Positions 35,511 to 45,877 of a stretch of 64,000 bases of DNA are shown piece after piece. Every line of letters starts with the position of its first letter. Within the stretch, counting starts at the first letter, position 1. The DNA is from Acidobacteriota bacterium. GTDB taxonomy: Bacteria; Acidobacteriota; UBA6911; RPQK01; G965218465. The DNA lies in NCBI GenBank assembly GCA_965218465.1, contig OZ244623.1:3032237-3096236 (forward strand), written 5' to 3'. Under the pieces are notes generated by a model. That model did no database searches. It was not told the DNA's origin and worked only from the letters and a program-made list of their open reading frames with translations. The position numbers and the translations under genes were made by a program.

Positions 35511-36263
35511 ATGTTCGATCATTTAATCGAATCCACATCAAACCGCAAGCGGCGAGGGGGGAACAGGACCTTTTTCATCTCGTTCTTGGTGCACGCTCTC
35601 GCGATTGGAATATTCGTGGTGATTCCGCTCTACTTTTACGCAGAGCTCGATGAGGGAGAATTGCTCACCTTCCTGGCGGCACCGCCACCGCCGCCACCAC
35701 CGCCGCCACCGCCACCACCACCGGCCAATGAACCGATTGTCCGACCCAAGATTCAGGTGGTGAAACTTGATCCCAACAGGTTCACGGCTCCGGTCGAAAT
35801 ACCTGACGACATTCCGGCACCGGTCGATGATGTTCCGGCCCTATCCACCTTTACTGGGGGTATTCCGGGCGGAGTGACTGGTGGAATCGTGGGTGGCGTC
35901 CCGGGCGGTGTTCGTGGAGGCGTGATCGGTGGCGTGCCGGCTGCACCACCACCGCCGCCGCCAAAGGCGGCCCGGAAACCGGTTCGAGTCGGCGGCAATG
36001 TCCAGAACTCAAAGCTGATCCGCAAGGTTCAACCGATTTACCCGGAACTGGCCAAGCGGGCTCGGGTTTCGGCCGTCGTGTTGCTGCAAGTCACGGTCAG
36101 CGAACTGGGCGAGGTTGTTGATATCAAGCTCGTGCGAGGACATCCTCTTCTCAACCAGGCTGCTATCGACGCGGTCCGGCAGTGGCGATACTCGCCCACT
36201 CTGCTCAACGGTGAACCGGTGCCTGTCATCGCTACCGTTACTGTCAACTTTATCCTCAGATAA
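35511..36263 (+). CDS. tonB: TonB-family energy transducer
   Basis: TM with SxxxH (SFLVH), poly-Pro and Gly-rich linker, C-terminal PIYPELAKRARV, AAIDAVRQWRYSP. Confidence 0.9.
   Translation: MFDHLIESTSNRKRRGGNRTFFISFLVHALAIGIFVVIPLYFYAELDEGELLTFLAAPPPPPPPPPPPPPPANEPIVRPKIQVVKLDPNRFTAPVEIPDDIPAPVDDVPALSTFTGGIPGGVTGGIVGGVPGGVRGGVIGGVPAAPPPPPPKAARKPVRVGGNVQNSKLIRKVQPIYPELAKRARVSAVVLLQVTVSELGEVVDIKLVRGHPLLNQAAIDAVRQWRYSPTLLNGEPVPVIATVTVNFILR
35682..35723 (+). repeat. Poly-proline tract (14 CCG/CCA codons) in tonB
   Basis: CCG/CCA run read directly from the sequence. Confidence 0.9.
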
Positions 36264-36305
36264 CAAGGAACCAGGAATTCTGAGCTAGCGAATGGGAGAT
36301 TGACA

Positions 36306-37001
36306 ATGGAAATTGGTTTTATGGCAATGTGGGATCAGATGGGCTTGCTAGCCAAGCTAGTGGTCGTCGTTTTGTTGATTCAGTCCGTCTGGTCGATCGC
36401 GGTGATGGTCGAGCGCTTTTTGACTTATCGTGCCGCTCGTAATCAGTCTAGAGACTTTGCTCCGGCAGTGGCCGAAGCGCTTCAGCAGCACAATTTGAGC
36501 GGGGCGCTGAGCGAAGCTTTGGAGATTTCCGAACAGTACAAGAAAAGCCACTTGGCAAGAGTATTGGCCGCCGGCCTGCAGGAATTCCAGGCGCATCAGG
36601 GTTCCTCAGACATACCCGGGGAAATGGTTGAGGCATCCAGGCGGGCGCTGCAACGGGCTGTTGCGGTTGGCATAGAGGATTTCAGGAAAGGATTAAGTGG
36701 ATTGGCCACCATCGGGAGCACCGCTCCCTTTGTGGGTCTTTTCGGGACCACGGTTGGAATCATCAACGCCTTTGCAGGAATGAGCCAAGCGGAAGATACC
36801 GGTTTGGCCGCCGTGGCCGGTGGCATCTCAGAAGCCCTGGTGGCCACGGCTTTCGGACTGTTCGTGGCGGTTCCCGCAGTATGGATGTATAACTACTTCA
36901 CCACCAAGATCGAATCGTTTGTGGTGGAGATGGATAATTCCTCCTCGGAATTGCTCGATTACTTTTTGAAGCGAAGAGGTGGCAACGATGGCAATGGCTA
37001 G
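36306..37001 (+). CDS. exbB: MotA/TolQ/ExbB proton channel protein
   Basis: LATIGSTAPFVGLFGT, GISEALVATAFGLFVAVPA. Confidence 0.9.
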   Translation: MEIGFMAMWDQMGLLAKLVVVVLLIQSVWSIAVMVERFLTYRAARNQSRDFAPAVAEALQQHNLSGALSEALEISEQYKKSHLARVLAAGLQEFQAHQGSSDIPGEMVEASRRALQRAVAVGIEDFRKGLSGLATIGSTAPFVGLFGTTVGIINAFAGMSQAEDTGLAAVAGGISEALVATAFGLFVAVPAVWMYNYFTTKIESFVVEMDNSSSELLDYFLKRRGGNDGNG

Positions 37002-37422
37002 GGGCGGACTCGAAACGGGAGTGACTTCCGACATCAATGTCACTCCCATGGCCGATATCATGCTGGTGCTTCTGATCATCTTCATGATCACAACGCCACT
37101 CCTGACCGATCCACTCTTCATCAATAAACCCAAGGCCGTCAACGCCCAGGAAGCTCCTGAAGTTGAGGGCAAGGAAGCGACTACGGTCGCCATCGATCGC
37201 ATGCAGCAGGTTTACATCAACAGAGAGCCGGTTCCCCTCGAGCAAGTGGTCGAGCGGCTGGCCGAGCGAGCGGCTCTGGCTCCTGAAAAACCTTTGTTTA
37301 TCAAGAGCGATGTGGCTGTCCCTTACGGGACCGTCGTCGACATAATTAACAAAGCCCGGGACGCTGAAATTGAGCGGATCGGGTTGCTGGTCGATCGAAT
37401 ACGAATAAGAGAGGGAGGATGA
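36988..37422 (+). CDS. exbD: ExbD/TolR family protein (first paralogue)
   Basis: DINVTPMADIMLVLLIIFM, IKSDVAVPYG. Confidence 0.9.
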   Translation: MAMARGGLETGVTSDINVTPMADIMLVLLIIFMITTPLLTDPLFINKPKAVNAQEAPEVEGKEATTVAIDRMQQVYINREPVPLEQVVERLAERAALAPEKPLFIKSDVAVPYGTVVDIINKARDAEIERIGLLVDRIRIREGG

Positions 37423-37428
37423 ACGGCC

Positions 37429-37848
37429 ATGGCCATGACTACCGCCAGCAAAGGCCCCAATTCAGATATCAATGTTACCCCTTACATAGACATCCTGTTG
37501 GTTCTGTTGATCATCTTCATGGTCATCCAACCGACCACCCAGTACGATTTGGAAGCGCGGGTGCCGAACCGGCCTCCTGAAGATATGCCCGAGAACGTGA
37601 TTGTCCAGTCGGATTCTATCGTGGTCGCCATGTCTCAAGACGGCGGGCTGCGAATCAATCAGGATCCGGTTACTTTGGCGGAGTTGGGTGCACGACTTTT
37701 TGACGTCTTCAGCGCCCGAGCCAACAAGAACATGTTCATCCAAGGCGACGGGGATTTGCCGTTTGGTGACGTAGTCAAAGTCATCGATGTCGCTAAGGGG
37801 GCAGGTGTCGGTGATATTGGTTTGATGACTGCCGACGTCGGCTACTGA
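37429..37848 (+). CDS. exbD: ExbD/TolR family protein (second paralogue)
   Basis: DINVTPYIDILLVLLIIFM, IQGDGDLPFG. Confidence 0.9.
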   Translation: MAMTTASKGPNSDINVTPYIDILLVLLIIFMVIQPTTQYDLEARVPNRPPEDMPENVIVQSDSIVVAMSQDGGLRINQDPVTLAELGARLFDVFSARANKNMFIQGDGDLPFGDVVKVIDVAKGAGVGDIGLMTADVGY

Positions 37849-37899
37849 TAATCAAAATTGTCCGGAGCCTCAAACGGAGGGTTCCCGAGGGAGCGAGAA

Positions 37900-38694
37900 A
37901 TGAGTGGGCGGATCAGACGCATTTCTTTGATGGTTGCTCTTTGGCTGGTGGCGGCTACACTTCCCGCTTGTGGGGTGATCAGCTATTTCCAGGCCCGAGA
38001 TCACCTCAACGAGGGAGTCAAGGCATACCATTCACAGAAGCACGAGGAAGCGACCGAGCATTTCAGGCAGGCCTACGATTTAGACCCGGAACTGAGCATA
38101 GCTTTGCTTTATTTGGCTACTAATTACCGGGCCCAGTGGGTTCCCGGCCTTCCTGGCGAAGAAAATGACCGGTTGGCCGAGCTAGCCATCCAGACCTTTG
38201 AGGAGGTTCTCGAGGTCGAGCCCGAGAACATCAATGCGCTGGCCAGCCTTGCCCTGATCTATGATGGTTTGGATGATCCGGAAGAGGCCAAGAAATGGTA
38301 TCTCAAGCGGATCGAAGTGCAACCAGACAACGCTGAACCCTATTATGGAATTGGCACCATCGATTGGAAACAGGTGCACGATGAGACCGGCGATGCCGGT
38401 AGTAATGTGGAGAATCTGGAAGAGGAATCGTTGGCGGAACTCTCTCGGCTAATCGACCAGGGTGTCGAATCACTCAGTACAGCGCTTGAGTTGAATCCCG
38501 AATACTCGGAAGCAATGCAATACCTCAACTTGCTCTACCGGGAGCGTGCCTATCTCTCCAGCGACGAGGAAGAGAAACGCAGATGGGAGCGGGAAGCCGA
38601 CAAGCTGGCCCTGCAAGCGCTCGAAATCAAGCGCCGGCAAGAAGAGGAAGCTGAACGGCAGCGACGTTCATTCGCTCAAGAAGCAGCACAATGA
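37900..38694 (+). CDS. Tetratricopeptide-repeat lipoprotein
   Basis: Lipobox-like LPA-C; TPR-like helical repeats (A..LDPE, LEVEPEN, LELNPEY). Confidence 0.8.
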   Translation: MSGRIRRISLMVALWLVAATLPACGVISYFQARDHLNEGVKAYHSQKHEEATEHFRQAYDLDPELSIALLYLATNYRAQWVPGLPGEENDRLAELAIQTFEEVLEVEPENINALASLALIYDGLDDPEEAKKWYLKRIEVQPDNAEPYYGIGTIDWKQVHDETGDAGSNVENLEEESLAELSRLIDQGVESLSTALELNPEYSEAMQYLNLLYRERAYLSSDEEEKRRWEREADKLALQALEIKRRQEEEAERQRRSFAQEAAQ

Positions 38695-38729
38695 ACTAAG
38701 GGTGGAATCCACCTCTGGGCTCTTGAAAG

Positions 38730-38765
38730 GGCAAGAAGACCGACTCAGTCTTCTTGCCTTTTTTT
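38730..38765 (+). terminator. Rho-independent terminator after the TPR gene
   Basis: GGCAAGAAGAC-N7-GTCTTCTTGCC perfect 11-bp stem followed by T7. Confidence 0.85.
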
Positions 38766-39057
38766 GTGCGCGCCGGCCACAGGCGGCAAGGATTCCTCCT
38801 TGTCTTTGCCTCTATCTCCCCTTTCTGTTCCCGAGAGCGAGAACTTCAGGCACAACTCTCCCACAGCGCCCGGTTTTTCCAGCGGTTCTTGTTCCGGGCA
38901 TCGACAGCTGACTCCGGAAATGACAATGCGATGGTAGAATCAACCGATCTCAGGCGATCCTCAAACGGTCCAAAGCCGGATTTCCGGCATCGCACCGCCT
39001 TGTCGTCAGCGGCCGTTTCTTTTGCCAAACCGGATCTCCCTGTGCTAGGCTAACGAA

Positions 39058-39393
39058 ATGTCTCACGATCTGACGCGCAGGGGCGTCGCGTTGTTTCTAG
39101 CCCTTGTGCTGCTGACTTTCGGCGGAGCGAGATCGGTTGAGATTCTCCATCCCCTCGAGGAGGCCCTCCAGGACCCCCATCAACAGCACCCGGAGGAAGT
39201 GCTGGAGAGGTCTTTCGTCCACGAGGCTCATTTCTGCGCTCATCTTCAGAAGCTGGAGTTGCCGCGGATCGAGTTGGATGCGTTTCCCCTAGGCATATCC
39301 CCTGCTCCCATGATTGAACTGGTGGTTGGCCACCAGTCCCTTCTTGTTTCCTCAATCCGCAGTCGCGGTCCTCCTCAGCTCGCCAGATCCTGA
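39058..39393 (+). CDS. Putative ribosome-arrest leader peptide (DUF2946/CruR-like layout, His-rich, C-terminal RGPP)
   Basis: N-terminal signal/TM (TRRGVALFLALVLLTFGGA), HQQH and HEAHFCAH, ends IRSRGPPQLARS, 76 nt upstream of a TBDR gene. Confidence 0.65.
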   Translation: MSHDLTRRGVALFLALVLLTFGGARSVEILHPLEEALQDPHQQHPEEVLERSFVHEAHFCAHLQKLELPRIELDAFPLGISPAPMIELVVGHQSLLVSSIRSRGPPQLARS

Positions 39394-39464
39394 TTTTCTG
39401 GATAGAGAACGGATAGGCTCACCAGGAGTCTTCCATTCTTCATAGCGAGCGACATACGGAGGAC
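39368..39464 (+). promoter_or_regulatory. Predicted SD-sequestering structure linking the RGPP codons to the TBDR RBS
   Basis: GTCCTCC (39368-39374) pairs with GGAGGAC (39458-39464); nested GCTCGC (39378-39383) pairs with GCGAGC (39445-39450). Confidence 0.6.
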
Positions 39465-39469
39465 AACTT

Positions 39470-41884
39470 ATGTTTCGATCGACTAGAAAGCAGTGGGCCT
39501 TTCTCTGGTTTGGAGTCATGTGCCTGCTAATGGTTTTGGTAAAGGCCCAATCTGGAGGCGTAGTGGAAGGAACCACCAGGCTGGACCGGACCGGTGAGCC
39601 AATTCATGGTGTTGCTGTCTTGATCGTCCAGCTCGGGCTGACAGTAGAGGCCGATACTTCCGGTCATTTCCGGTTTGAGAACGTGCCGGCCGGAAACTAT
39701 GACATTCTGGCCCAAAGTGGGGTGCTCAGCACCCCTACCCAACTCATTGAGGTGCGTCCGGACGAGGTCACCACTGTCGACTTTTCTCTCAAACTGGAAC
39801 CGATTCGACACGAGATTACCGTGACGGCCCGGGGGCAAGAGGAGACGGCTTTTGAAGCTGTGCAGTCGGTCACCACGCTCGATTCTTTTGACTTGGCCCA
39901 GAAGATGTCATCTTCGCTGGGCGACGTACTTGACGACGAGCCGGGGGTCTCCAAGCGGAGTTTCGGCCCCGGTAGCACCCGGCCGGTCATCCGGGGGTTT
40001 GACGGCGACCGCGTTTTGGTCATGCAGGACGGCATTCGAGTCGGCTCATTGGCTTCGCAATCAGGTGACCATGGAGAGCCGCTGGATTCGGCTGGCGTGG
40101 AGCGGGTCGAGATCATCAAAGGTCCGGCCACGCTGCTTTATGGCAGCAACGCTATCGGAGGCGTAGTCAATGCTGTCAGCGGGCATAACGAGGCGCACCA
40201 GCGTCCCCACCAGGGTTTGACCGGCCAGTTCACCACTGGAGCCGGCGCCAACGACGGCTATGGTGCAGCCAGCATAAAGGCCGAATATGGTAATCGGGGC
40301 TGGTTTTTTTGGGCTGGAGGCGGCGGTCGACGCAGCGGCGATTATACAACCCCGATCGGCTTGGTAGACAACTCCAAGAGTCGAATGACCAACGTTTCGG
40401 CCGGCCTGGGTTACTTCGGGAACAAAGCCTACCTCAGCTTTGGAACCACTATTAACGACGGTCTCTATGGAATCCCTGGAGCTGAAGATTCTCACGGGCT
40501 GCACGGACACGAAGACGAGGATGAGCATCACGACGAAGACGAGGATGAGCATCACGACGAAGAAGACGAGCATGGTCATGGGGAAGAGGAGCTGGAGGCA
40601 ATCGATATCGATTTCCGGCGCACCAATTATCGCTTCCGCGCCGGTTTGCAGAATCTGAACCGAGGCATGCAGGGCTTTGACTTCTCCCTCAACTATTCCG
40701 ACTGGAACCACAATGAGCTCGAGCTTTTCGCAAGTGGAGAGCAACTGCTAGCCACTCGATTCGACAACCGGCAGTGGGTCTACCGCGGAGTTTTCGAACA
40801 GCAAAGAATCGGAAACCTCGGAGGAAGATTTGGTTTCTGGGGCCGGGTGCGGAATTATGAGGTGGTGGGCGAGGAATCACTTTCGCCTCCCGTCGACCAG
40901 CAAGCCTTCGCCCTATTTGCTCTGGAGGAGCTCGATTTCGAAAGCGTCAAGCTGCAGTTTGGAGCTCGTGTCGAGTTCAACGACTACGAAGTGAAGGGAC
41001 TCCAGTTGCGAGAACACCTCCACGAGGAAGAAGAGGAACACGAACACGAGGAAGAGGAACACGATGAGGAAGAGGAACACGATGAGGAAGAAGAGGTAGA
41101 GGCGATTCAGCTTCCGAGGCGGGACTTCATGGCCTTTTCGGCTGGAATCGGCGCCCGCTTCGATATTGGAACCCACGGCGCCTTTATTGCCAACTTCACT
41201 TCTTCGCAACGGGCCCCGGCTTTGGAGGAGCTCTACAACTTCGGACCCCACGTCGGAAATCTCGCCTTCGAGGTCGGGAATCCCTATCTGGAGCCTGAAC
41301 GCAGCAACGGACTCGACTTCTCCTTTCGGCACCACCATGAGCGCTTGCACGTCAACGCCAGTTTCTTCTACTACGACATCGACAACTTCATCTTCCTGCA
41401 ATCTTCCGGAGAGGTAGTTGACGGTTTACTGGAAGGGCAGTTCGAACAAGGCGACAGCCGCTTCGTAGGAGCGGAGTTCCGCTTCGACAGCAGTCTCCAT
41501 GAGAATTTGTGGCTCAACCTGGGTTTGGATCTCGTGGACGCCGAGCTCACCCAGCTCGGTCAACCTCTACCCCGCATTCCACCCATCAAGGGACGGATCG
41601 GACTGGATTTTCGGCATCGCGGTTTCAGCTTTCGGCCGCAACTCGTGATGGCCGGCCGACAGGACAGCGTTGTTGCTCCGGTGGAGACGCCCACGGCAGG
41701 CTACGCGGTGCTCGATTTGAAGGCCTCGTACACGATTCCGGCGCAGCACTTTCTGCACCAGTTCGCGGTCAACGTCTACAATGTCGGGGACCGGCTTTAT
41801 CGAAACCATCTCTCGTTTATCAAAGAGTTGGCTCCCGAGATCGGTCGGGGAATTCGCGTTTCCTATACCGTCAAGTTCTTTTGA
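39470..41884 (+). CDS. TonB-dependent receptor, ZnuD-like with His/acid-rich loops (divalent-metal uptake)
   Basis: Signal peptide, carboxypeptidase-regulatory-like N-domain, plug (RPVIRGFDGDRV, GDH, VEIIKGPATLLYG), His/Glu/Asp tracts, RAPALEELY..GPH, C-terminal Phe. Confidence 0.9.
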   Translation: MFRSTRKQWAFLWFGVMCLLMVLVKAQSGGVVEGTTRLDRTGEPIHGVAVLIVQLGLTVEADTSGHFRFENVPAGNYDILAQSGVLSTPTQLIEVRPDEVTTVDFSLKLEPIRHEITVTARGQEETAFEAVQSVTTLDSFDLAQKMSSSLGDVLDDEPGVSKRSFGPGSTRPVIRGFDGDRVLVMQDGIRVGSLASQSGDHGEPLDSAGVERVEIIKGPATLLYGSNAIGGVVNAVSGHNEAHQRPHQGLTGQFTTGAGANDGYGAASIKAEYGNRGWFFWAGGGGRRSGDYTTPIGLVDNSKSRMTNVSAGLGYFGNKAYLSFGTTINDGLYGIPGAEDSHGLHGHEDEDEHHDEDEDEHHDEEDEHGHGEEELEAIDIDFRRTNYRFRAGLQNLNRGMQGFDFSLNYSDWNHNELELFASGEQLLATRFDNRQWVYRGVFEQQRIGNLGGRFGFWGRVRNYEVVGEESLSPPVDQQAFALFALEELDFESVKLQFGARVEFNDYEVKGLQLREHLHEEEEEHEHEEEEHDEEEEHDEEEEVEAIQLPRRDFMAFSAGIGARFDIGTHGAFIANFTSSQRAPALEELYNFGPHVGNLAFEVGNPYLEPERSNGLDFSFRHHHERLHVNASFFYYDIDNFIFLQSSGEVVDGLLEGQFEQGDSRFVGAEFRFDSSLHENLWLNLGLDLVDAELTQLGQPLPRIPPIKGRIGLDFRHRGFSFRPQLVMAGRQDSVVAPVETPTAGYAVLDLKASYTIPAQHFLHQFAVNVYNVGDRLYRNHLSFIKELAPEIGRGIRVSYTVKFF
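40510..40557 (+). repeat. 24-bp tandem repeat x2 encoding EDEDEHHD
   Basis: CGAAGACGAGGATGAGCATCACGA occurs twice in tandem. Confidence 0.85.
41021..41096 (+). repeat. Low-complexity His/Glu coding repeats with an 18-bp unit (GAGGAAGAGGAACACGAT)
   Basis: Encodes HEEEEEHEHEEEEHDEEEEHDEEEE. Confidence 0.8.
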
Positions 41885-42276: not shown

Positions 42277-43629
42277 TCAGAATTTATACGCTGCAACCAA
42301 GTAGGTGAAGGTGTTTCCGTGCCCCGGCGAGTTAGCCTTGAGAAAAGGCCCGGGGAACATGTACCCTACGCCGCCGCCCAGGCTAAGGGTTTGCGATACG
42401 GGTACCGTGAACACAGCGTTGACCTCGTCTCCGACCTTCGAATCTGTTGCTCCGCCGGGAGGCGGTGCGACGGACAAGCGCCCGCCCACGTTGTAGAGGG
42501 CGTCACCTGTAGTAGCTAGCCAGAACGAGTGGAAGTCGAATTGCAGGCCGAGCTTCCTGTGGGGCTTGAACTCCGTCCCAAATCGGATATTTTTTAGATT
42601 GCGCCACCCGACAAGGTCGTTGTAGCCGTACCAACGGTGCGCGGTGGGATACACATCCACGAAGCCGCCGATCCGACCATCCCCAGGATCCTCGTCACCC
42701 GAACCAAAATTGTAGTGAGCGTAAAATCTCGGGCTCCAACGGGCATCGATGGAATAGCCGAGTTCAGCGTAGTAGGCCCAAGCCCGGATCTCTGCGCCTG
42801 CCACGTCGCCCCATTGTCCAACCAGAGCCACATTGTAATCCCAAGGCCCGAGGCCCTTTGCCCAAGCTCTCAAACCCAGCGTGTACCGGTCGAGATCGCC
42901 GCTCGCGTTCAACTCATTGCTGGCCAAAGGCCTGGTCTGCCAAAGGACATAGGGTTCCAGCGTGGACCCCGGTATCACGTTTTCGATGGCGCCGTAGATT
43001 CCGTGCAAGTTGTTTCCCTCGGCCGACCGGTTGATTCGGCGGTCGGGATCGTTCTGCACCACTTGCGCAGAGAAGACATCGACCTTGAAGCTGTCGCCCC
43101 GCAATTGGAGCTTGACTGCGTCGAAGGCCCGGGAGGTGTTGGCCCAGTCCAAGGCGCCTACGAGGCGCTGGTCGCCGTAAGCCAGCAGTTGGCGCCCCAC
43201 CGTCAGCGCGACGGGAGAGTTGTCGTCGCCGATCTGGGCGTATGCTTGCCGCAGGTCGAACCCATCCCGAAAGGCTCCGATATTGGGTAACCCTTGGCGG
43301 ATGCCCGGAGCACGGGCATCCTGACCCTGAAACCCAAACTTCAGCCACGAGGCGGGCCTGATTGCCACGTCCAAGCGGTTGCGGACTAGACCATATCCAT
43401 CGTCGCTTCCTTTGCGGTAGCCCAAGGCTTGGCGGTCTTCGTAGCGGACGCGGAACTCTCCAAAAATATGGAGCCAACTCGGCAGATCATCACCGATACC
43501 ACGCTGGAGTGTTCCCTGAGGCTTTTTGCTCTCTTGGTCCCGCCCGTCGCCGAAGCCAACCGCCGCCGACAGAACGCAGACTATGCCCACGAGTGCCGCG
43601 CGCTTTACCTGCACAGAGAGACTCCGCAT
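42277..43629 (-). CDS. Alginate-export (AlgE-like) family outer-membrane porin
   Basis: Signal peptide, GEFRVRYE, DLRQAY, VGRQLLAYGDQRLVG.LDW.N.SRAFDA, GSGD, YPTAH, C-terminal YKF. Confidence 0.82.
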   Translation of the reverse strand: MRSLSVQVKRAALVGIVCVLSAAVGFGDGRDQESKKPQGTLQRGIGDDLPSWLHIFGEFRVRYEDRQALGYRKGSDDGYGLVRNRLDVAIRPASWLKFGFQGQDARAPGIRQGLPNIGAFRDGFDLRQAYAQIGDDNSPVALTVGRQLLAYGDQRLVGALDWANTSRAFDAVKLQLRGDSFKVDVFSAQVVQNDPDRRINRSAEGNNLHGIYGAIENVIPGSTLEPYVLWQTRPLASNELNASGDLDRYTLGLRAWAKGLGPWDYNVALVGQWGDVAGAEIRAWAYYAELGYSIDARWSPRFYAHYNFGSGDEDPGDGRIGGFVDVYPTAHRWYGYNDLVGWRNLKNIRFGTEFKPHRKLGLQFDFHSFWLATTGDALYNVGGRLSVAPPPGGATDSKVGDEVNAVFTVPVSQTLSLGGGVGYMFPGPFLKANSPGHGNTFTYLVAAYKF

Positions 43630-44491: not shown

Positions 44492-45877
44492 CTAGTTCAG
44501 GTCATCCTCTTCCGGCATGAGCACAAACTCGGGATAGGCCTCCATGCCCAACTCCCCGACGTCTTGACCCAGTCGTTCGACTTGGCGCGATACGCGGACA
44601 CTCAGAGTTATAGCTATCAAACGCCACAGCAGCCACGAGGTCGCGAACACAAACGCCCCAACCGCTCCCACACCCAGCAGTTGCACGCCGAGGTTTCCGC
44701 CGCCGGCGATGCAAACCGCCAGGGTTCCCCAGATACCGGCGAACAGATGGGCGGGCACCGCCCCGACGACATCGTCGATCTTGACGCTTTCCAGCAACTT
44801 GATCCCCGCGGTGCACACGATTGCACCGACGGCGCCAATGATGATCGCCCAATGGTGGGTGACGATGGCAGGGCCGGCGGTAATGGAGACTAGTCCCGCA
44901 ATGGCGCCGTTCAAGGTAGCGAACAGATCCATGCGCCCCAGGATAGGCCGGGAAACAATGAGGGCGGCTACGACGCCGGCTGCCGCCGCCAAGTTGGTGT
45001 TGACCAGGACATGACTCATGGCCAACACGTCGGCGGCACTCCCCAGCGCCAGTTGCGATCCGCCGTTGAAGCCGAACCAGCCGAACCAGAGGATAAACAC
45101 CCCCAAAGTCACCACCGGGACGTTGGAGGGCGGCGTGGGCTTGACCGTGCCGTCGCTCCGGAACTTGCCTAGCCGCGGTCCTACAACCAGCGCGCCCGCC
45201 AGCGCCGCCCAGCCACCGGTGCTATGGACTATGGTCGAGCCGGCGAAATCCTGGAACCCCAGTGCATTCAGCCACCCGCCACCCCAAGTCCAGGCACCGA
45301 CCATCGGATAGATGACTGCGGTCAGCACCAGCGTAAAGAGGAAGAACGACCACATCTTGACTCGTTCGGCCAGCGCGCCGGAAACGATGGAGGCGGCGGT
45401 CGCCACGAAGACCATCTGGAAGAACCAGTCCGACATGGTGGAATAGCCGTTTGCAATCACGGAGGCCTGTGCCCCCTCTTGTCCTGCCGCCAAGGCGAGA
45501 TCATGGGCCGACGGCCCGTAGAGAAACTTGAACGATCCGACCAAGCTTCCCACGTCGACATACATGAGGTTATAGCCGATGAGGTAGTAGGCCAGCCCGG
45601 CTACGGAGTAAAGGCCGATGTTCTTCATGCAGATCATGGAGGAGTTCTTGGTGCGCACGGATCCGGTCTCGAGCATAGTGAACCCTGCACACATCCACAT
45701 GACCATCGCACCCCAAACCAAAAGCGAGAAGGTGTTGAAGATGAACAGGATCTCCTCGTCAACCGCTGCTTGGGCGGTAGTTGTGCCGCACAACAGGCAA
45801 ACGACCACAACCAAAGTCCTTCCTGCAAAGCTGCCTCCGAGGCGTTGGTGCAGCGGGGCTCTTGTATCCTTTCTCAT
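44492..45877 (-). CDS. amt: Ammonium transporter (Amt family)
   Basis: AGFTMLETGSVRTKN, FFQMVF, SGALAER, DFAGSTIVH, WFGWFGFNGGS, IDDVVGAVPAH (twin His). Confidence 0.95.
   Translation of the reverse strand: MRKDTRAPLHQRLGGSFAGRTLVVVVCLLCGTTTAQAAVDEEILFIFNTFSLLVWGAMVMWMCAGFTMLETGSVRTKNSSMICMKNIGLYSVAGLAYYLIGYNLMYVDVGSLVGSFKFLYGPSAHDLALAAGQEGAQASVIANGYSTMSDWFFQMVFVATAASIVSGALAERVKMWSFFLFTLVLTAVIYPMVGAWTWGGGWLNALGFQDFAGSTIVHSTGGWAALAGALVVGPRLGKFRSDGTVKPTPPSNVPVVTLGVFILWFGWFGFNGGSQLALGSAADVLAMSHVLVNTNLAAAAGVVAALIVSRPILGRMDLFATLNGAIAGLVSITAGPAIVTHHWAIIIGAVGAIVCTAGIKLLESVKIDDVVGAVPAHLFAGIWGTLAVCIAGGGNLGVQLLGVGAVGAFVFATSWLLWRLIAITLSVRVSRQVERLGQDVGELGMEAYPEFVLMPEEDDLN

Follow-up and report, generated by a model that had tools for sequence, protein, structure and literature searches.

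We describe a 111-aa leader gene that precedes a TonB-dependent receptor gene in a 64,000-nt stretch of an Acidobacteriota genome (the window, to which all positions refer). The leader is a conserved small gene that, judging from its motifs, probably stalls its own ribosome at an Arg-Gly-Pro-Pro sequence, and in the window the Gly-Pro-Pro stall codons double as the anti-Shine-Dalgarno (anti-SD) of the receptor SD. We consider it fairly probable that the leader is a regulatory arrest peptide of the RAPP/RGPP class, which heads a two-gene unit with a ZnuD-like receptor and is switched by metal. The observations of a first-pass annotation of this DNA were confirmed as a whole, and its interpretation is partly supported. 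The features are as follows.

38725–38772, + strand: intrinsic terminator closing the upstream TonB-ExbB-ExbD-ExbD-TPR gene row (stem, U run, fold)
39022–39051, + strand: putative promoter, TTGCCA (39022–39027), 18-nt spacer and TGC-TAGGCT (−10 at 39046–39051), read from the sequence
39058–39393, + strand: leader ORF, 111 aa, conserved unannotated family (ORF translation, homologue and profile searches)
39079–39135, + strand: predicted export signal or N-terminal membrane helix, residues about 8–26 (hydrophobic stretch after basic residues; AlphaFold2 helix; invariant F21)
39139–39162, + strand: E28-x-x-H31-P32-x-E34-E35, candidate metal ligands (conserved, directly after the hydrophobic helix)
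39229–39243, + strand: H58-x-C60-x-H62, candidate metal sensor (C60 invariant; H58 and H62 at least 90% conserved)
39238–39363, + strand: 42-residue spacer from C60 to R103, fixed in length and free in sequence (locus and protein counts)
39364–39375, + strand: R103-G-P-P106 codons CGC GGT CCT CCT, predicted stall site (R103 and P106 invariant; P105 at least 90% conserved)
39368–39383, + strand: 5′ arm of the masking helix, anti-SD GUCCUCC plus UC, then GCUCGC (folds)
39394–39469, + strand: intergenic region, 76 nt, two inner hairpins closed by the long-range helix (folds)
39445–39464, + strand: 3′ arm of the masking helix, GCGAGCGA (39445–39452) plus the receptor SD GGAGGAC (39458–39464) (sequence, folds)
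39470–41884, + strand: TonB-dependent receptor, 804 aa, ZnuD-like (Pfam CarboxypepD_reg, Plug and barrel; ZnuD as best NCBIfam and PDB match)

The leader family and its receptor

The leader and the receptor form a separate transcription unit, since the gene row upstream is closed by the terminator, a 16-bp G+C-rich stem followed by seven U (fold of 38695–38800, −50.5 kcal/mol, z = −4.59; none of 200 shuffles as good). The putative −10 box ends 6 nt before the leader ATG at 39058, which would give an mRNA with little or no 5′ untranslated region, and a TAnnnT box lies 6–13 nt before the leader start with no SD between them in all 18 loci examined. A consensus promoter scan of the leader upstream region returned no promoter, because the −10 box matches at only three of six positions. 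A metatranscriptome contig (run X2, 157 nt, depth 3.45) that spans 39324–39479, and thus runs from the predicted stall codons across the intergenic region to the start of the receptor gene, lends weak support to a transcript; it is shallow, may contain DNA, and does not allow transcript ends to be read.

The 111-aa ORF reported in the first-pass annotation, with its signal-like helix, HQQH, HEAHFCAH and C-terminal RGPP, is present in every part: the protein carries T6-R7-R8-G9, a hydrophobic stretch at residues 10–24, H41QQH44 and H55EAHFCAH62, and RGPP (residues 103–106) is followed by QLARS and the TGA stop at 39391–39393. The Tat-like reading of TRRG did not hold up for lack of conservation, with LMGRG at this place in the 92%-identical homologue and no twin arginine in other members. 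A Tat signal peptide was thus rejected, the motif being absent from that homologue and from most members.

Three close homologues share 73–92% identity with the leader. Within the Acidobacteriota order to which the window belongs, the leader profile found a match in 28 of the 76 genomes and in 18 of the 32 genera, and a search of 1.84 billion proteins gave 61 cluster representatives at E ≤ 1e-3. In an alignment of 45 sequences with a mean column identity of 28%, F21, E28, C60, R103 and P106 are invariant and P32, H58, H62 and P105 are at least 90% conserved; E28, H31, P32 and E34 are invariant in a 15-sequence alignment. Such a pattern would be typical of a regulatory nascent chain. AlphaFold2 models the window leader as a single helix (residues 2–37, pLDDT 89–98), with a pLDDT of 55–62 over the remainder, and so predicts no folded domain beyond the N-terminal helix. 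This export-type helix stands at a fixed distance from E-x-x-H-P-x-E-E in all family members.

The supposition that the leader is a "His-liganded, non-CxxC variant" stood in its second half, the motif being H-x-C-x-H, but not as a purely His site, given the invariant C60 and the additional E-x-x-H-P-x-E-E. An invariant CXXC was ruled out; the single invariant Cys of the family is the one in H-x-C-x-H. Of 52 scored proteins, 50 have 42 residues between this Cys and the Arg of the core motif and the other two have 43 (by locus, 42 in 24 of 27 and 43 in two); the adjacent His-to-Cys gap, by contrast, ranges from 27 to 43 residues. Neither the 15- nor the 45-sequence alignment has a conserved column within the Cys-to-Arg stretch, where the AlphaFold2 pLDDT is likewise 55–62.

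The core motif is RGPP in 35 and RAPP in 15 of 63 leader proteins, with a tail of mostly 2–8 residues after RxPP; PPP follows the core only in a few members (for example, RAPPP in locus L040). ApdA, ApdP and ApcA are arrest peptides of the RAPP/RGPP type. In passages of a recent survey, RAPP and RGPP are described as robust, EF-P-refractory arrest motifs that are avoided in proteomes, but enriched close to the C-terminal end of small secretory proteins whose genes precede those of TonB receptors (PMC12992588). The long ORFs of the window genome contain RGPP 7 and RAPP 3 times, versus 16 for AGPP and 17 for AAPP. The motif itself thus points to stalling at the leader RGPP, and by analogy with the CruR toeprint in the same source (PMC12992588), Pro105 would occupy the P site and Pro106 the A site, which would place H58-x-C60-x-H62 43–47 residues from the peptidyl-transferase center.

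The ORF could also be a small exported or membrane-anchored metal-binding partner of the receptor, such as a chaperone or shuttle, with RxPP and the SD pairing playing no regulatory part. Its conserved His/Cys/Glu residues, its export signal and its strict linkage to the receptor would suit such a protein, which we nonetheless hold to be very improbable: no folded domain is predicted by AlphaFold2, the 42-residue stretch is conserved in length only, and RxPP is invariant at a fixed place 2–8 residues from the end, despite its avoidance in proteomes (PMC12992588).

The best NCBIfam match of the receptor is ZnuD (NF038289) at 220.5 bits, far below the curated cut-off of 950, so that membership in NF038289 proper was rejected. 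Its best solved relative is also ZnuD (4rdr, E 7.4e-32, over residues 139–351 only), and by sequence its closest relative thus appears to be ZnuD. The poly-His/acid loops noticed earlier correspond to two His/Asp/Glu-rich inserts at residues about 339–377 and 516–543 (nucleotides about 40484–40600 and 41015–41098). Of the 13 aligned relatives, which comprise 12 leader-linked orthologues and an adjacent paralogue, 11 carry the His/acid-rich loop A; two leader-linked receptors have no His in their loops.

Leader and receptor are adjacent on the same strand in 19 of the best 30 receptor loci, and they are the sole genes common to 15 compared loci. Upstream of orthologous receptors, the leader ORF and its RxPP are conserved, but not everywhere: five orthologous receptors (49–54% identity) have no such leader ORF in the 1500 nt upstream. 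One orthologous receptor is headed by a CxxC-type leader instead.

Pairing of the predicted stall codons with the receptor SD

In the window, GTCCTCC (39368–39374) is the exact complement of GGAGGAC (39458–39464), the receptor SD located 5 nt ahead of the receptor ATG at 39470, as the first-pass annotation had claimed; its second, nested helix was also recovered, with GCTCGC (39378–39383) complementing GCGAGC (39445–39450). Both helices are present in the minimum-energy and centroid folds of 39340–39480 (−43.2 kcal/mol, z = −2.38; 3 of 200 shuffles as good), and both are retained when the whole leader mRNA (39058–39490) is folded. No Rfam family matched the intergenic region 39394–39469 at E ≤ 1. 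The 5′ arm covers positions −2 to +13 relative to the P-site codon and thus lies within the predicted stalled ribosome, and the probability that the SD pairs inside this footprint is 1.0 in the window ensemble with 150 nt of upstream context. The genome uses CCT for 16% of its Pro codons and GGT for 21% of its Gly codons, so that for the given peptide the prior probability of GGT-CCT is about 3.4%; in a recoding test, 5.4% of 1000 synonymous recodings reached the strength with which the native sequence pairs with the SD window.

The idea that a stalled ribosome would cover the anti-SD is therefore well matched by the prediction for the window (P 1.0) but extends to only part of the family: masking of the SD by the stall footprint is predicted (P ≥ 0.58) for 14 of the 24 loci, which correspond to 12 of 20 lineages after collapsing, and is not predicted (P < 0.2) in the other 10 loci, of which L007, L010 and L011 are close relatives of loci with strong predicted masking. 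The leader–receptor gap of the 24 loci is 54–214 nt. The covariation check of the SD/anti-SD pair that was proposed earlier gave support, since in several lineages the pairing recurs with both partners changed in step. Loci with unusual SDs carry matching leader codons, and in L012, L014, L016 and L040 the cognate pair outperforms at least 22 of the 23 non-cognate pairs. The synonymous recoding test gave p ≤ 0.06 in five of 20 lineages (Fisher combined p = 4e-4) and was not significant in 15, with the window itself at only 0.054. The first Pro codon of RxPP is CCT in 13 of 21 lineages, versus the 16% usage in the window genome. Any Pro-Pro codon pair is C-rich and therefore pairs to some extent with G-rich SDs; non-cognate SD/leader duplexes average −9 to −16 kcal/mol.

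The loci without predicted masking bear on a second reading, in which the stall occurs as proposed but acts mainly through Rho-dependent termination, the stalled ribosome shielding a rut-like C-rich stretch and the SD helix being secondary or incidental. Another output must exist in these 10 of 24 loci, since footprint masking is not predicted there, and CruR works through Rho before a TonB receptor (PMC9426467). In the window, a stretch with more C than G (39298–39405; C 36–37%, G 21%, C/G about 1.8) covers the stall site. We still judge this reading unlikely: the intergenic region has 76 nt versus 162 nt in Bordetella pertussis (PMC9426467), the window SD helix is strong and survives full-length folding, synonymous sites favor SD pairing in several lineages, and Rho dependence is not readable from sequence. 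How much SD unmasking and how much Rho control would contribute to the output is an inference on our part.

A proposed metal-released arrest switch

In the model that we prefer, a regulatory arrest switched by metal, the unit would have a promoter of its own and a transcript that is probably leaderless, and the leader would be translated while its N-terminal helix targets it to the membrane. The ribosome would stall at Pro105–Pro106 and hold nt 39368–39383 in its mRNA channel. These nucleotides otherwise pair with the receptor SD, and thus the stall is proposed to free the SD and allow receptor translation; the stalled ribosome would also cover a C-rich, G-poor stretch and could additionally block Rho, as in CruR. 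H58-x-C60-x-H62, just outside the exit tunnel at the stall, may bind metal, perhaps together with E28, H31 and E34-E35, and metal binding may compact or pull the chain and so release the stall. Once released, the ribosome would terminate; with the helix formed again, synthesis of the receptor would cease. This metal-off polarity would be the one expected for an uptake receptor.

A reversed polarity, in which metal causes or prolongs the stall and turns the receptor on as in CutF, or a stall that reports export or Sec capacity rather than metal, seems improbable to us. The CutF stall is Cu-induced during secretion and requires the signal sequence (bioRxiv 10.1101/2025.02.05.636593), and the fixed distance between the export-type helix and E-x-x-H-P-x-E-E throughout the leader family would fit such a mode. 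However, the regulated gene is an uptake receptor, whose induction by excess metal would be counter-productive, and plain Sec monitoring leaves the invariant His/Cys/Glu residues unexplained.

Returning to the metal-released arrest, the metal, among Zn, Ni, Co and Cu, would most likely be zinc. The metal identity is clouded by the CxxC-type leaders elsewhere in the phylum, which precede receptors 41–45% identical to the window receptor; one receptor behind a CxxC-type leader also carries a His-rich loop. A bolder version, which we put forward tentatively as possible rather than probable, is that the leaders are an independent, non-DUF2946 family of metal-sensing arrest peptides, and the first of them to respond to zinc. 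An H-x-C-x-H site placed exactly 42 residues away from the stall codon would read the metal as the site emerges from the ribosomal tunnel, perhaps with a bridge across the translocon to E-x-x-H-P-x-E-E on its far side, and release an RGPP stall whose codons are the anti-SD of a ZnuD-like receptor. If this were true, the almost equal spacing of two families that look unrelated (42 residues in these leaders, 43–45 in DUF2946) would amount to a general "tunnel ruler" for ligand-released arrest.

To our knowledge, two metal-responsive arrest leaders have been studied, both copper-related and both DUF2946. The present family would add a sharply defined second sensor design, with other ligand residues and in another phylum, and the closest relative of its receptor imports zinc. 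The 42-residue spacer, conserved in length only, makes the model in which metal binds just outside the tunnel and pulls directly testable, and stall codons that serve as an anti-SD offer a minimal testable switch joining a CruR-type motif with a CutF-type output. In addition, a function can now be proposed for a 110-aa ORF family left blank by gene callers and Pfam.

Comparison with known arrest leaders and ZnuD

Passages of the CruR study describe Bp2923 of B. pertussis, a DUF2946 protein with CXXC, 45 residues and RAPP, which precedes a TonB receptor and regulates via Rho-dependent termination; the distance from metal motif to RAPP is conserved within 1–2 residues (PMC9426467). Like CruR, the window leader is the small first gene of its unit, is predicted to carry an N-terminal export signal and to be otherwise unstructured, has a short Cys-bearing motif, the candidate metal site, whose distance to the C-terminal R-A/G-P-P is fixed in its family, and is followed by a few-residue tail, a long untranslated gap (76 nt in the window) and a TonB-dependent receptor. 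Unlike CruR with its CXXC, the leader family has H-x-C-x-H plus E-x-x-H-P-x-E-E; its spacer is 42 residues, versus 45 in CruR (PMC9426467) and 43–45 in the CxxC leaders of the phylum; the window receptor is ZnuD-like, whereas that of CruR is of the copper type; and the predicted stall codons in the window are themselves the anti-SD.

In line with the earlier supposition, neither Pfam searches nor profile comparison place the family within DUF2946. DUF2946 (PF11162) membership was rejected for the window ORF, which has no Pfam family at E ≤ 10 and does not reach the gathering score of 23.7 bits. PF11162 weakly matches two of 45 family members (best E 7.4e-4); it gave no match at the leader locus in a six-frame search of the window's own genome and none over the cut-off in the sampled part of the window's order. 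The CxxC leaders found in this phylum form a set of their own. An hhalign comparison of the 45 members with nine CxxC leaders aligned 25 C-terminal columns only (probability 47%, E 2e-4). Language-model look-alikes of the leader include clusters automatically named DUF2946 (scores 0.94–0.96), which we treat as a lead only.

In passages of the CutF study from Rhodobacter capsulatus, Cu induces stalling at an EF-P-dependent PPP during co-translational secretion, for which the signal sequence is required, and the stall melts a stem-loop shielding the RBS of the next gene, switching on a detoxifying oxidase (bioRxiv 10.1101/2025.02.05.636593). Like CutF, the window and, across the family, 14 of 24 loci have a predicted RBS-shielding mRNA helix that a stalled ribosome could open. 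Unlike the EF-P-dependent PPP of CutF, the leader motif is R-G/A-P-P, of the EF-P-refractory class (PMC12992588). Where CutF serves a detoxifying oxidase, the leader here precedes an uptake receptor, and its polarity is therefore expected to be the reverse.

As a class, RAPP/RGPP leaders ahead of TonB receptors have been published before: the survey of Fujiwara et al. (2025) includes "TonB-related" RAPP/RGPP upstream ORFs across Gram-negative phyla (PMC12992588). Like the arrest peptides in it, the window leader has the RGPP/RAPP core near the C-terminus of a small secretory protein upstream of the gene presumed to be regulated. The survey sorts ORFs by the annotation of the downstream gene, whereas the leader family is defined here by its own motifs, and the main-text passages of that paper do not describe this family, its H-x-C-x-H and E-x-x-H-P-x-E-E motifs or the 42-residue rule (PMC12992588). 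As judged from its motifs, the family of the window leader is thus new in sequence and belongs to a kind of switch that was described recently.

The receptor resembles ZnuD of Neisseria meningitidis (4rdr) in its His/acid-rich inserts and, unlike ZnuD, has an extra N-terminal CarboxypepD_reg domain. ZnuD itself is regulated by Zur.

A leader ORF with an arrest-type terminus

The ORF that precedes the gene for the TonB-dependent receptor (804 residues; 39470-41884, plus strand) carries an N-terminal hydrophobic segment, three motifs rich in His or acidic residues and a C-terminal RGPP, which is predicted to arrest the ribosome.

Features of the leader, all on the plus strand
39058-39393: leader ORF, 111 amino acids with a TGA stop; basic N-terminus, then a hydrophobic stretch
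Residues 28-35: EILHPLEE motif, from the translation
Residues 41-44: HQQH motif, from the translation
Residues 55-62: HEAHFCAH motif, from the translation
39364-39375 (residues 103-106): RGPP, codons CGC GGT CCT CCT, followed by QLARS and the TGA stop

A word-seeded protein search recovered three homologues (73-92% identity), every one with the RGPPQLARS terminus, and six-frame searches of relatives found an ORF with the same motifs in 18 of the first 20 loci and divergent forms in the remaining two. The leader profile matched 28 of the 76 genomes in the window's order, from 18 of 32 genera, and 19 of the 52 genomes that are at least 90% complete; in an even sample of the phylum, the 12 matching genomes out of 401 all fell within this order. 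Scanned in full with HMMER, 1.84 billion cluster representatives yielded 61 matches at E <= 1e-3, 40 of them at E <= 1e-10. The database names of the family are "hypothetical protein" or none, and no family protein carries a precomputed Pfam domain. The unpublished genome G003 supplied one row of alignment A1, the query of the profile searches, and accounts for 1 of the 27 loci and 1 of the 20 lineages; no conclusion rests solely on it.

In an alignment of 45 sequences (mean column identity 28%), F21, E28, C60, R103 and P106 are invariant, and P32, H58, H62 and P105 are at least 90% conserved. The stall-type motif reads RGPP in 35 of 63 proteins and RAPP in 15, with rare RSPP, RDPP, RGSP and RAQP, and is mostly followed by a tail of 2-8 residues; P0027, P0048, P0051 and P0057 gave no motif match in this count, and the matches of P0013 and P0060 are false. 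The Tat-like TRRG of the first-pass annotation is not conserved. Its proposal of a His-liganded sensor without CxxC holds in that the CxxC is missing and an H-x-C-x-H stands in the leader, but the invariant Cys (C60) belongs to the sensor.

The stretch from C60 to R103 has no conserved residue, and its length is fixed: of 27 loci, 24 have a gap of 42 residues and two a gap of 43; counted by protein, it is 42 in 50 and 43 in two of the 52 scored (12 of the 64 proteins were unscored). The neighbouring stretch from H31 to C60 is variable, at 27-43 residues. HP-x-EE follows the start codon at a distance of 30 residues in 17 of 18 loci. AlphaFold2, run on the family alignment of 45 sequences, predicted a single helix at residues 2-37 (pLDDT 89-98) and no folded domain or metal site, the remainder having a pLDDT of 55-62. 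A free-standing function of the leader peptide is the rival explanation on which these data bear; as judged from sequence and model, the profile fits a regulatory nascent chain rather than a folded protein. In one low-G+C relative (L033/L017, G013:C39), RGSP replaces RxPP and D replaces H31; the 42-residue gap is nonetheless retained by hand count.

Pairing between the stall codons and the receptor Shine-Dalgarno sequence

GTCCTCC (39368-39374) in the Gly-Pro-Pro codons is the exact complement of GGAGGAC (39458-39464), the Shine-Dalgarno (SD) sequence 5 nt ahead of the receptor ATG (39470), and GCTCGC (39378-39383) is complementary to GCGAGC (39445-39450). Both helices are present in the minimum-energy and centroid folds of 39340-39480 (-43.2 kcal/mol, z = -2.38, equalled by 3 of 200 shuffles), in the fold of the whole leader mRNA and, with P = 1.0, in the window ensemble with 150 nt of upstream context, confirming the earlier proposal of an RGPP ORF with an anti-SD at its Gly-Pro-Pro codons and of two nested helices. 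The pairing in the window requires rare codons, because CCT makes up 16% of the Pro codons and GGT 21% of the Gly codons of the genome; among 1000 synonymous recodings, 5.4% pair as well as the native sequence.

Masking in the family was computed as the ensemble probability that the receptor SD is paired within the footprint of a stalled ribosome that has the first Pro codon in its P site. The SD analyses took in the 24 loci with a clear receptor start; L018 and L019 were left out for an unclear receptor start and L033 as lying outside the motif filter, and L044 is truncated by the end of its contig. All 24 loci have an SD that is mostly paired (0.63-1.0); the masking probability reaches 0.58 or more in 14 of them and stays below 0.2 in the other 10. 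After near-identical leaders were collapsed (L006, L009, L010 and L011 merged onto L008), masking is predicted in 12 of 20 lineages. The anti-SD of some loci lies two to four codons past RxPP, still within the footprint.

Unusual SDs occur in several loci, each with matching codons in its own leader. For four such loci, at most one of 23 non-cognate pairs equals or exceeds the cognate pair, and a further compensatory example comes from G003. CCT serves as the first Pro codon in 13 of 21 lineages, and the recoding test gave p <= 0.06 in 5 of 20 lineages (Fisher combined p = 4e-4). Over all loci, the comparison of cognate with non-cognate duplexes gave a modest signal: depending on the locus, anything from 0 to all 23 of the 23 non-cognate pairs match or exceed the cognate one in strength. 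Non-cognate duplexes are also fairly stable because Pro-Pro codons are C-rich whatever the codon choice. Moreover, L007, a close relative of strongly pairing loci, has lost much of the helix. Taken together, SD masking by the stall codons is well supported in the window and about half of the lineages, but is not a universal property of the family.

In the two loci with an unclear receptor start (L018 and L019; genomes G015 and G010), a clear SD, GGGAGG, is followed by no ATG, GTG or TTG at the usual distance in the receptor frame, and an unusual start codon is possible. The SD of L104 (G043:C2) carries a mismatch. A search of 39058-39470 against Rfam gave no known RNA element at E <= 1, and four weak hits elsewhere were far below the gathering scores.

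Transcription unit, linkage to the receptor and candidate metal

Features around the leader-receptor unit
35511-38694: genes for TonB (long poly-Pro runs), ExbB, two ExbD and a TPR lipoprotein-like protein, directly upstream of the unit
38725-38772, plus strand: intrinsic terminator, a 16-bp stem and then seven U, z = -4.59
6 nt before the leader ATG, plus strand: promoter reading TTGCCA, 18 nt, TGC-TAGGCT, the box of conserved position
42277-43629, minus strand: Alginate_exp family outer-membrane protein (Pfam), convergent with the receptor
44492-45877, minus strand: ammonium-transporter-like ORF (function from reading the translation), farther downstream

The terminator closes the TonB-ExbB-ExbD-ExbD-TPR row upstream of the leader. 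This row is absent as a neighbour in the 14 other loci examined, and has no linkage to the module there. The leader and the receptor are the only genes common to 15 loci, compared over contexts of up to 18 kb, and no conserved neighbour across these loci hints at a metal.

All 18 loci compared have a TAnnnT box 6-13 nt ahead of the leader start and lack an SD there. Since a consensus promoter scan of 38600-39600 gave no site, we can only infer a leaderless start of the leader mRNA, the promoter reading relying on a weaker -10 box of conserved position. In the metatranscriptome X2, a 157-nt contig (depth 3.45) spans 39324-39479 and another lies over 39229-39353, and a possible RNA run, X1, covers 39073-39222; such contigs show neither ends nor strand and may derive from library DNA. 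The runs have no cover upstream of 39058 or over most of the receptor and are uninformative on transcript ends, and the short matches at 40514-40548 and 41022-41060 come from low-complexity parts of contigs of other organisms. The 157-nt contig differs from the window by a synonymous T>C in the Ser102 codon (39363) and by a G>C and an inserted C in the 3' arm of the second helix (39449), which may be errors or reflect a related strain. A terminator-like 8-bp hairpin with a T-rich run lies inside the leader at 39318-39337, about 30 nt before the RGPP codons; the scanned region holds four terminator-like sites against 1.1 expected.

The leader had been expected before orthologous receptors. Among the best 30 receptor loci of the order, an H-x-C-x-H leader lies directly upstream on the same strand in 19, including two divergent leaders that the profile missed and that both keep the 42-residue gap, but five have no leader-type ORF within 1500 nt. 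One is preceded instead by a leader of the CxxC (DUF2946-like) type, whose gap is 44 residues, and five were unjudgeable owing to a contig end or a partial match. At L083 (G023:C1:4291528-4296879), in the same order, a CxxC leader with 44 residues to its RAPP precedes a receptor 44% identical to that of the window (41% by tblastn), and therefore both leader types serve related receptors; the L083 receptor has a His-rich loop with 12 His. Leader-linked receptors are split at L104 (ORFs of 150 and 618 residues) and at L099 (G012:C11; 334, 258 and 124 residues), which may reflect frameshifts, decay or misassembly. Two receptor paralogues, 50% and 52% identical to the window's, occur in one genome (L076 and G443:C2:1864846-1867810), with a leader at one only.

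The receptor has CarboxypepD_reg, Plug and barrel domains (Pfam). Among NCBIfam models it scores highest with ZnuD, at 220.5 bits (the cut-off is 950), and reaches 80 bits with the copper receptor model; its best solved relative is ZnuD 4rdr (E 7.4e-32), followed by haem receptors (1e-16) and OprC (1e-11). Of 13 aligned relatives (12 leader-linked orthologues and one adjacent paralogue), 11 carry loop A, a His/acid-rich insert with 3-9 His. The leader-linked orthologue at L091 has one His in loop A; at L092, the insert of the leader-linked receptor is acidic and has a single His, and the neighbouring paralogue has no insert. Elsewhere in the phylum, CxxC leaders precede receptors 41-45% identical to the window's. 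The His insert is missing in five of six receptors behind CxxC leaders and present in one, inside the window's order. Zinc is our best guess for the metal from these comparisons, with copper or other divalent metals also in play.

Proposed mechanism and relation to known arrest leaders

At the predicted stall, 105 residues are polymerised and H-x-C-x-H lies 43-47 residues from the peptidyl-transferase centre. The ribosomal exit tunnel holds roughly 30-40 residues. The motif would sit just outside the tunnel, and the N-terminal helix, at least 80 residues away, could already engage the membrane. This helix also bears on the rival explanation that the stall serves Sec monitoring; the reading we prefer places sensing in H-x-C-x-H. 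The stalled ribosome would cover 39368-39383 and free the SD, and would also cover 39298-39405, a C-rich, G-poor stretch over the leader 3' end (C 36-37%, G 21%) and a possible Rho entry site. Metal binding to the emerging H-x-C-x-H would then release the stall and switch the receptor off. We chose this polarity because of CruR, a CxxC-type leader, and the needs of an uptake system; a rival reading is that the polarity is reversed.

As to family, the window ORF has no DUF2946 match in Pfam, 2 of 45 family members have weak ones only, and its own genome has no DUF2946 match over the cut-off. A profile-profile comparison with nine CxxC leaders of the phylum aligned the last 25 columns only (probability 47%). 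By these comparisons the family is not a Pfam DUF2946 member, in agreement with the earlier view. The neighbours in a language-model search, which we take as a lead only, were unannotated clusters and clusters automatically named DUF2946, most commonly labelled Gemmatimonadota. In the text of openly accessible papers, we found nothing on a zinc or ZnuD arrest leader, and only unrelated papers for CruR with zinc and arrest.

CruR, a DUF2946 protein encoded before a TonB receptor, carries an export signal; its invariant CXXC is separated by 45 residues, a distance kept to within one or two, from a RAPP that lies three residues from the C-terminus. Once copper has released the stall, transcription is terminated by Rho (PMC9426467). 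The rut site of cruR was mapped in a "C>G bubble" (PMC9426467), which the stretch at 39298-39405 resembles. The CruR stall has two Pro codons in the P and A sites (PMC12992588). In CutF, a PPP stall lets the ribosome melt a stem-loop over the RBS of the next gene (bioRxiv 10.1101/2025.02.05.636593). Fujiwara et al. 2025 describe RAPP/RGPP as robust, EF-P-refractory arrest motifs that are avoided in proteomes and enriched towards the C-terminal end of small secretory proteins whose genes precede those of TonB receptors (PMC12992588). To the limits of sequence comparison, the finding is real and its core reading stands. On every feature that can be read, the leader family would work like the CruR, CutF and RAPP/RGPP systems: RAPP/RGPP leaders before TonB receptors are a class already in print, and the two halves of the mechanism are found in CruR and CutF.
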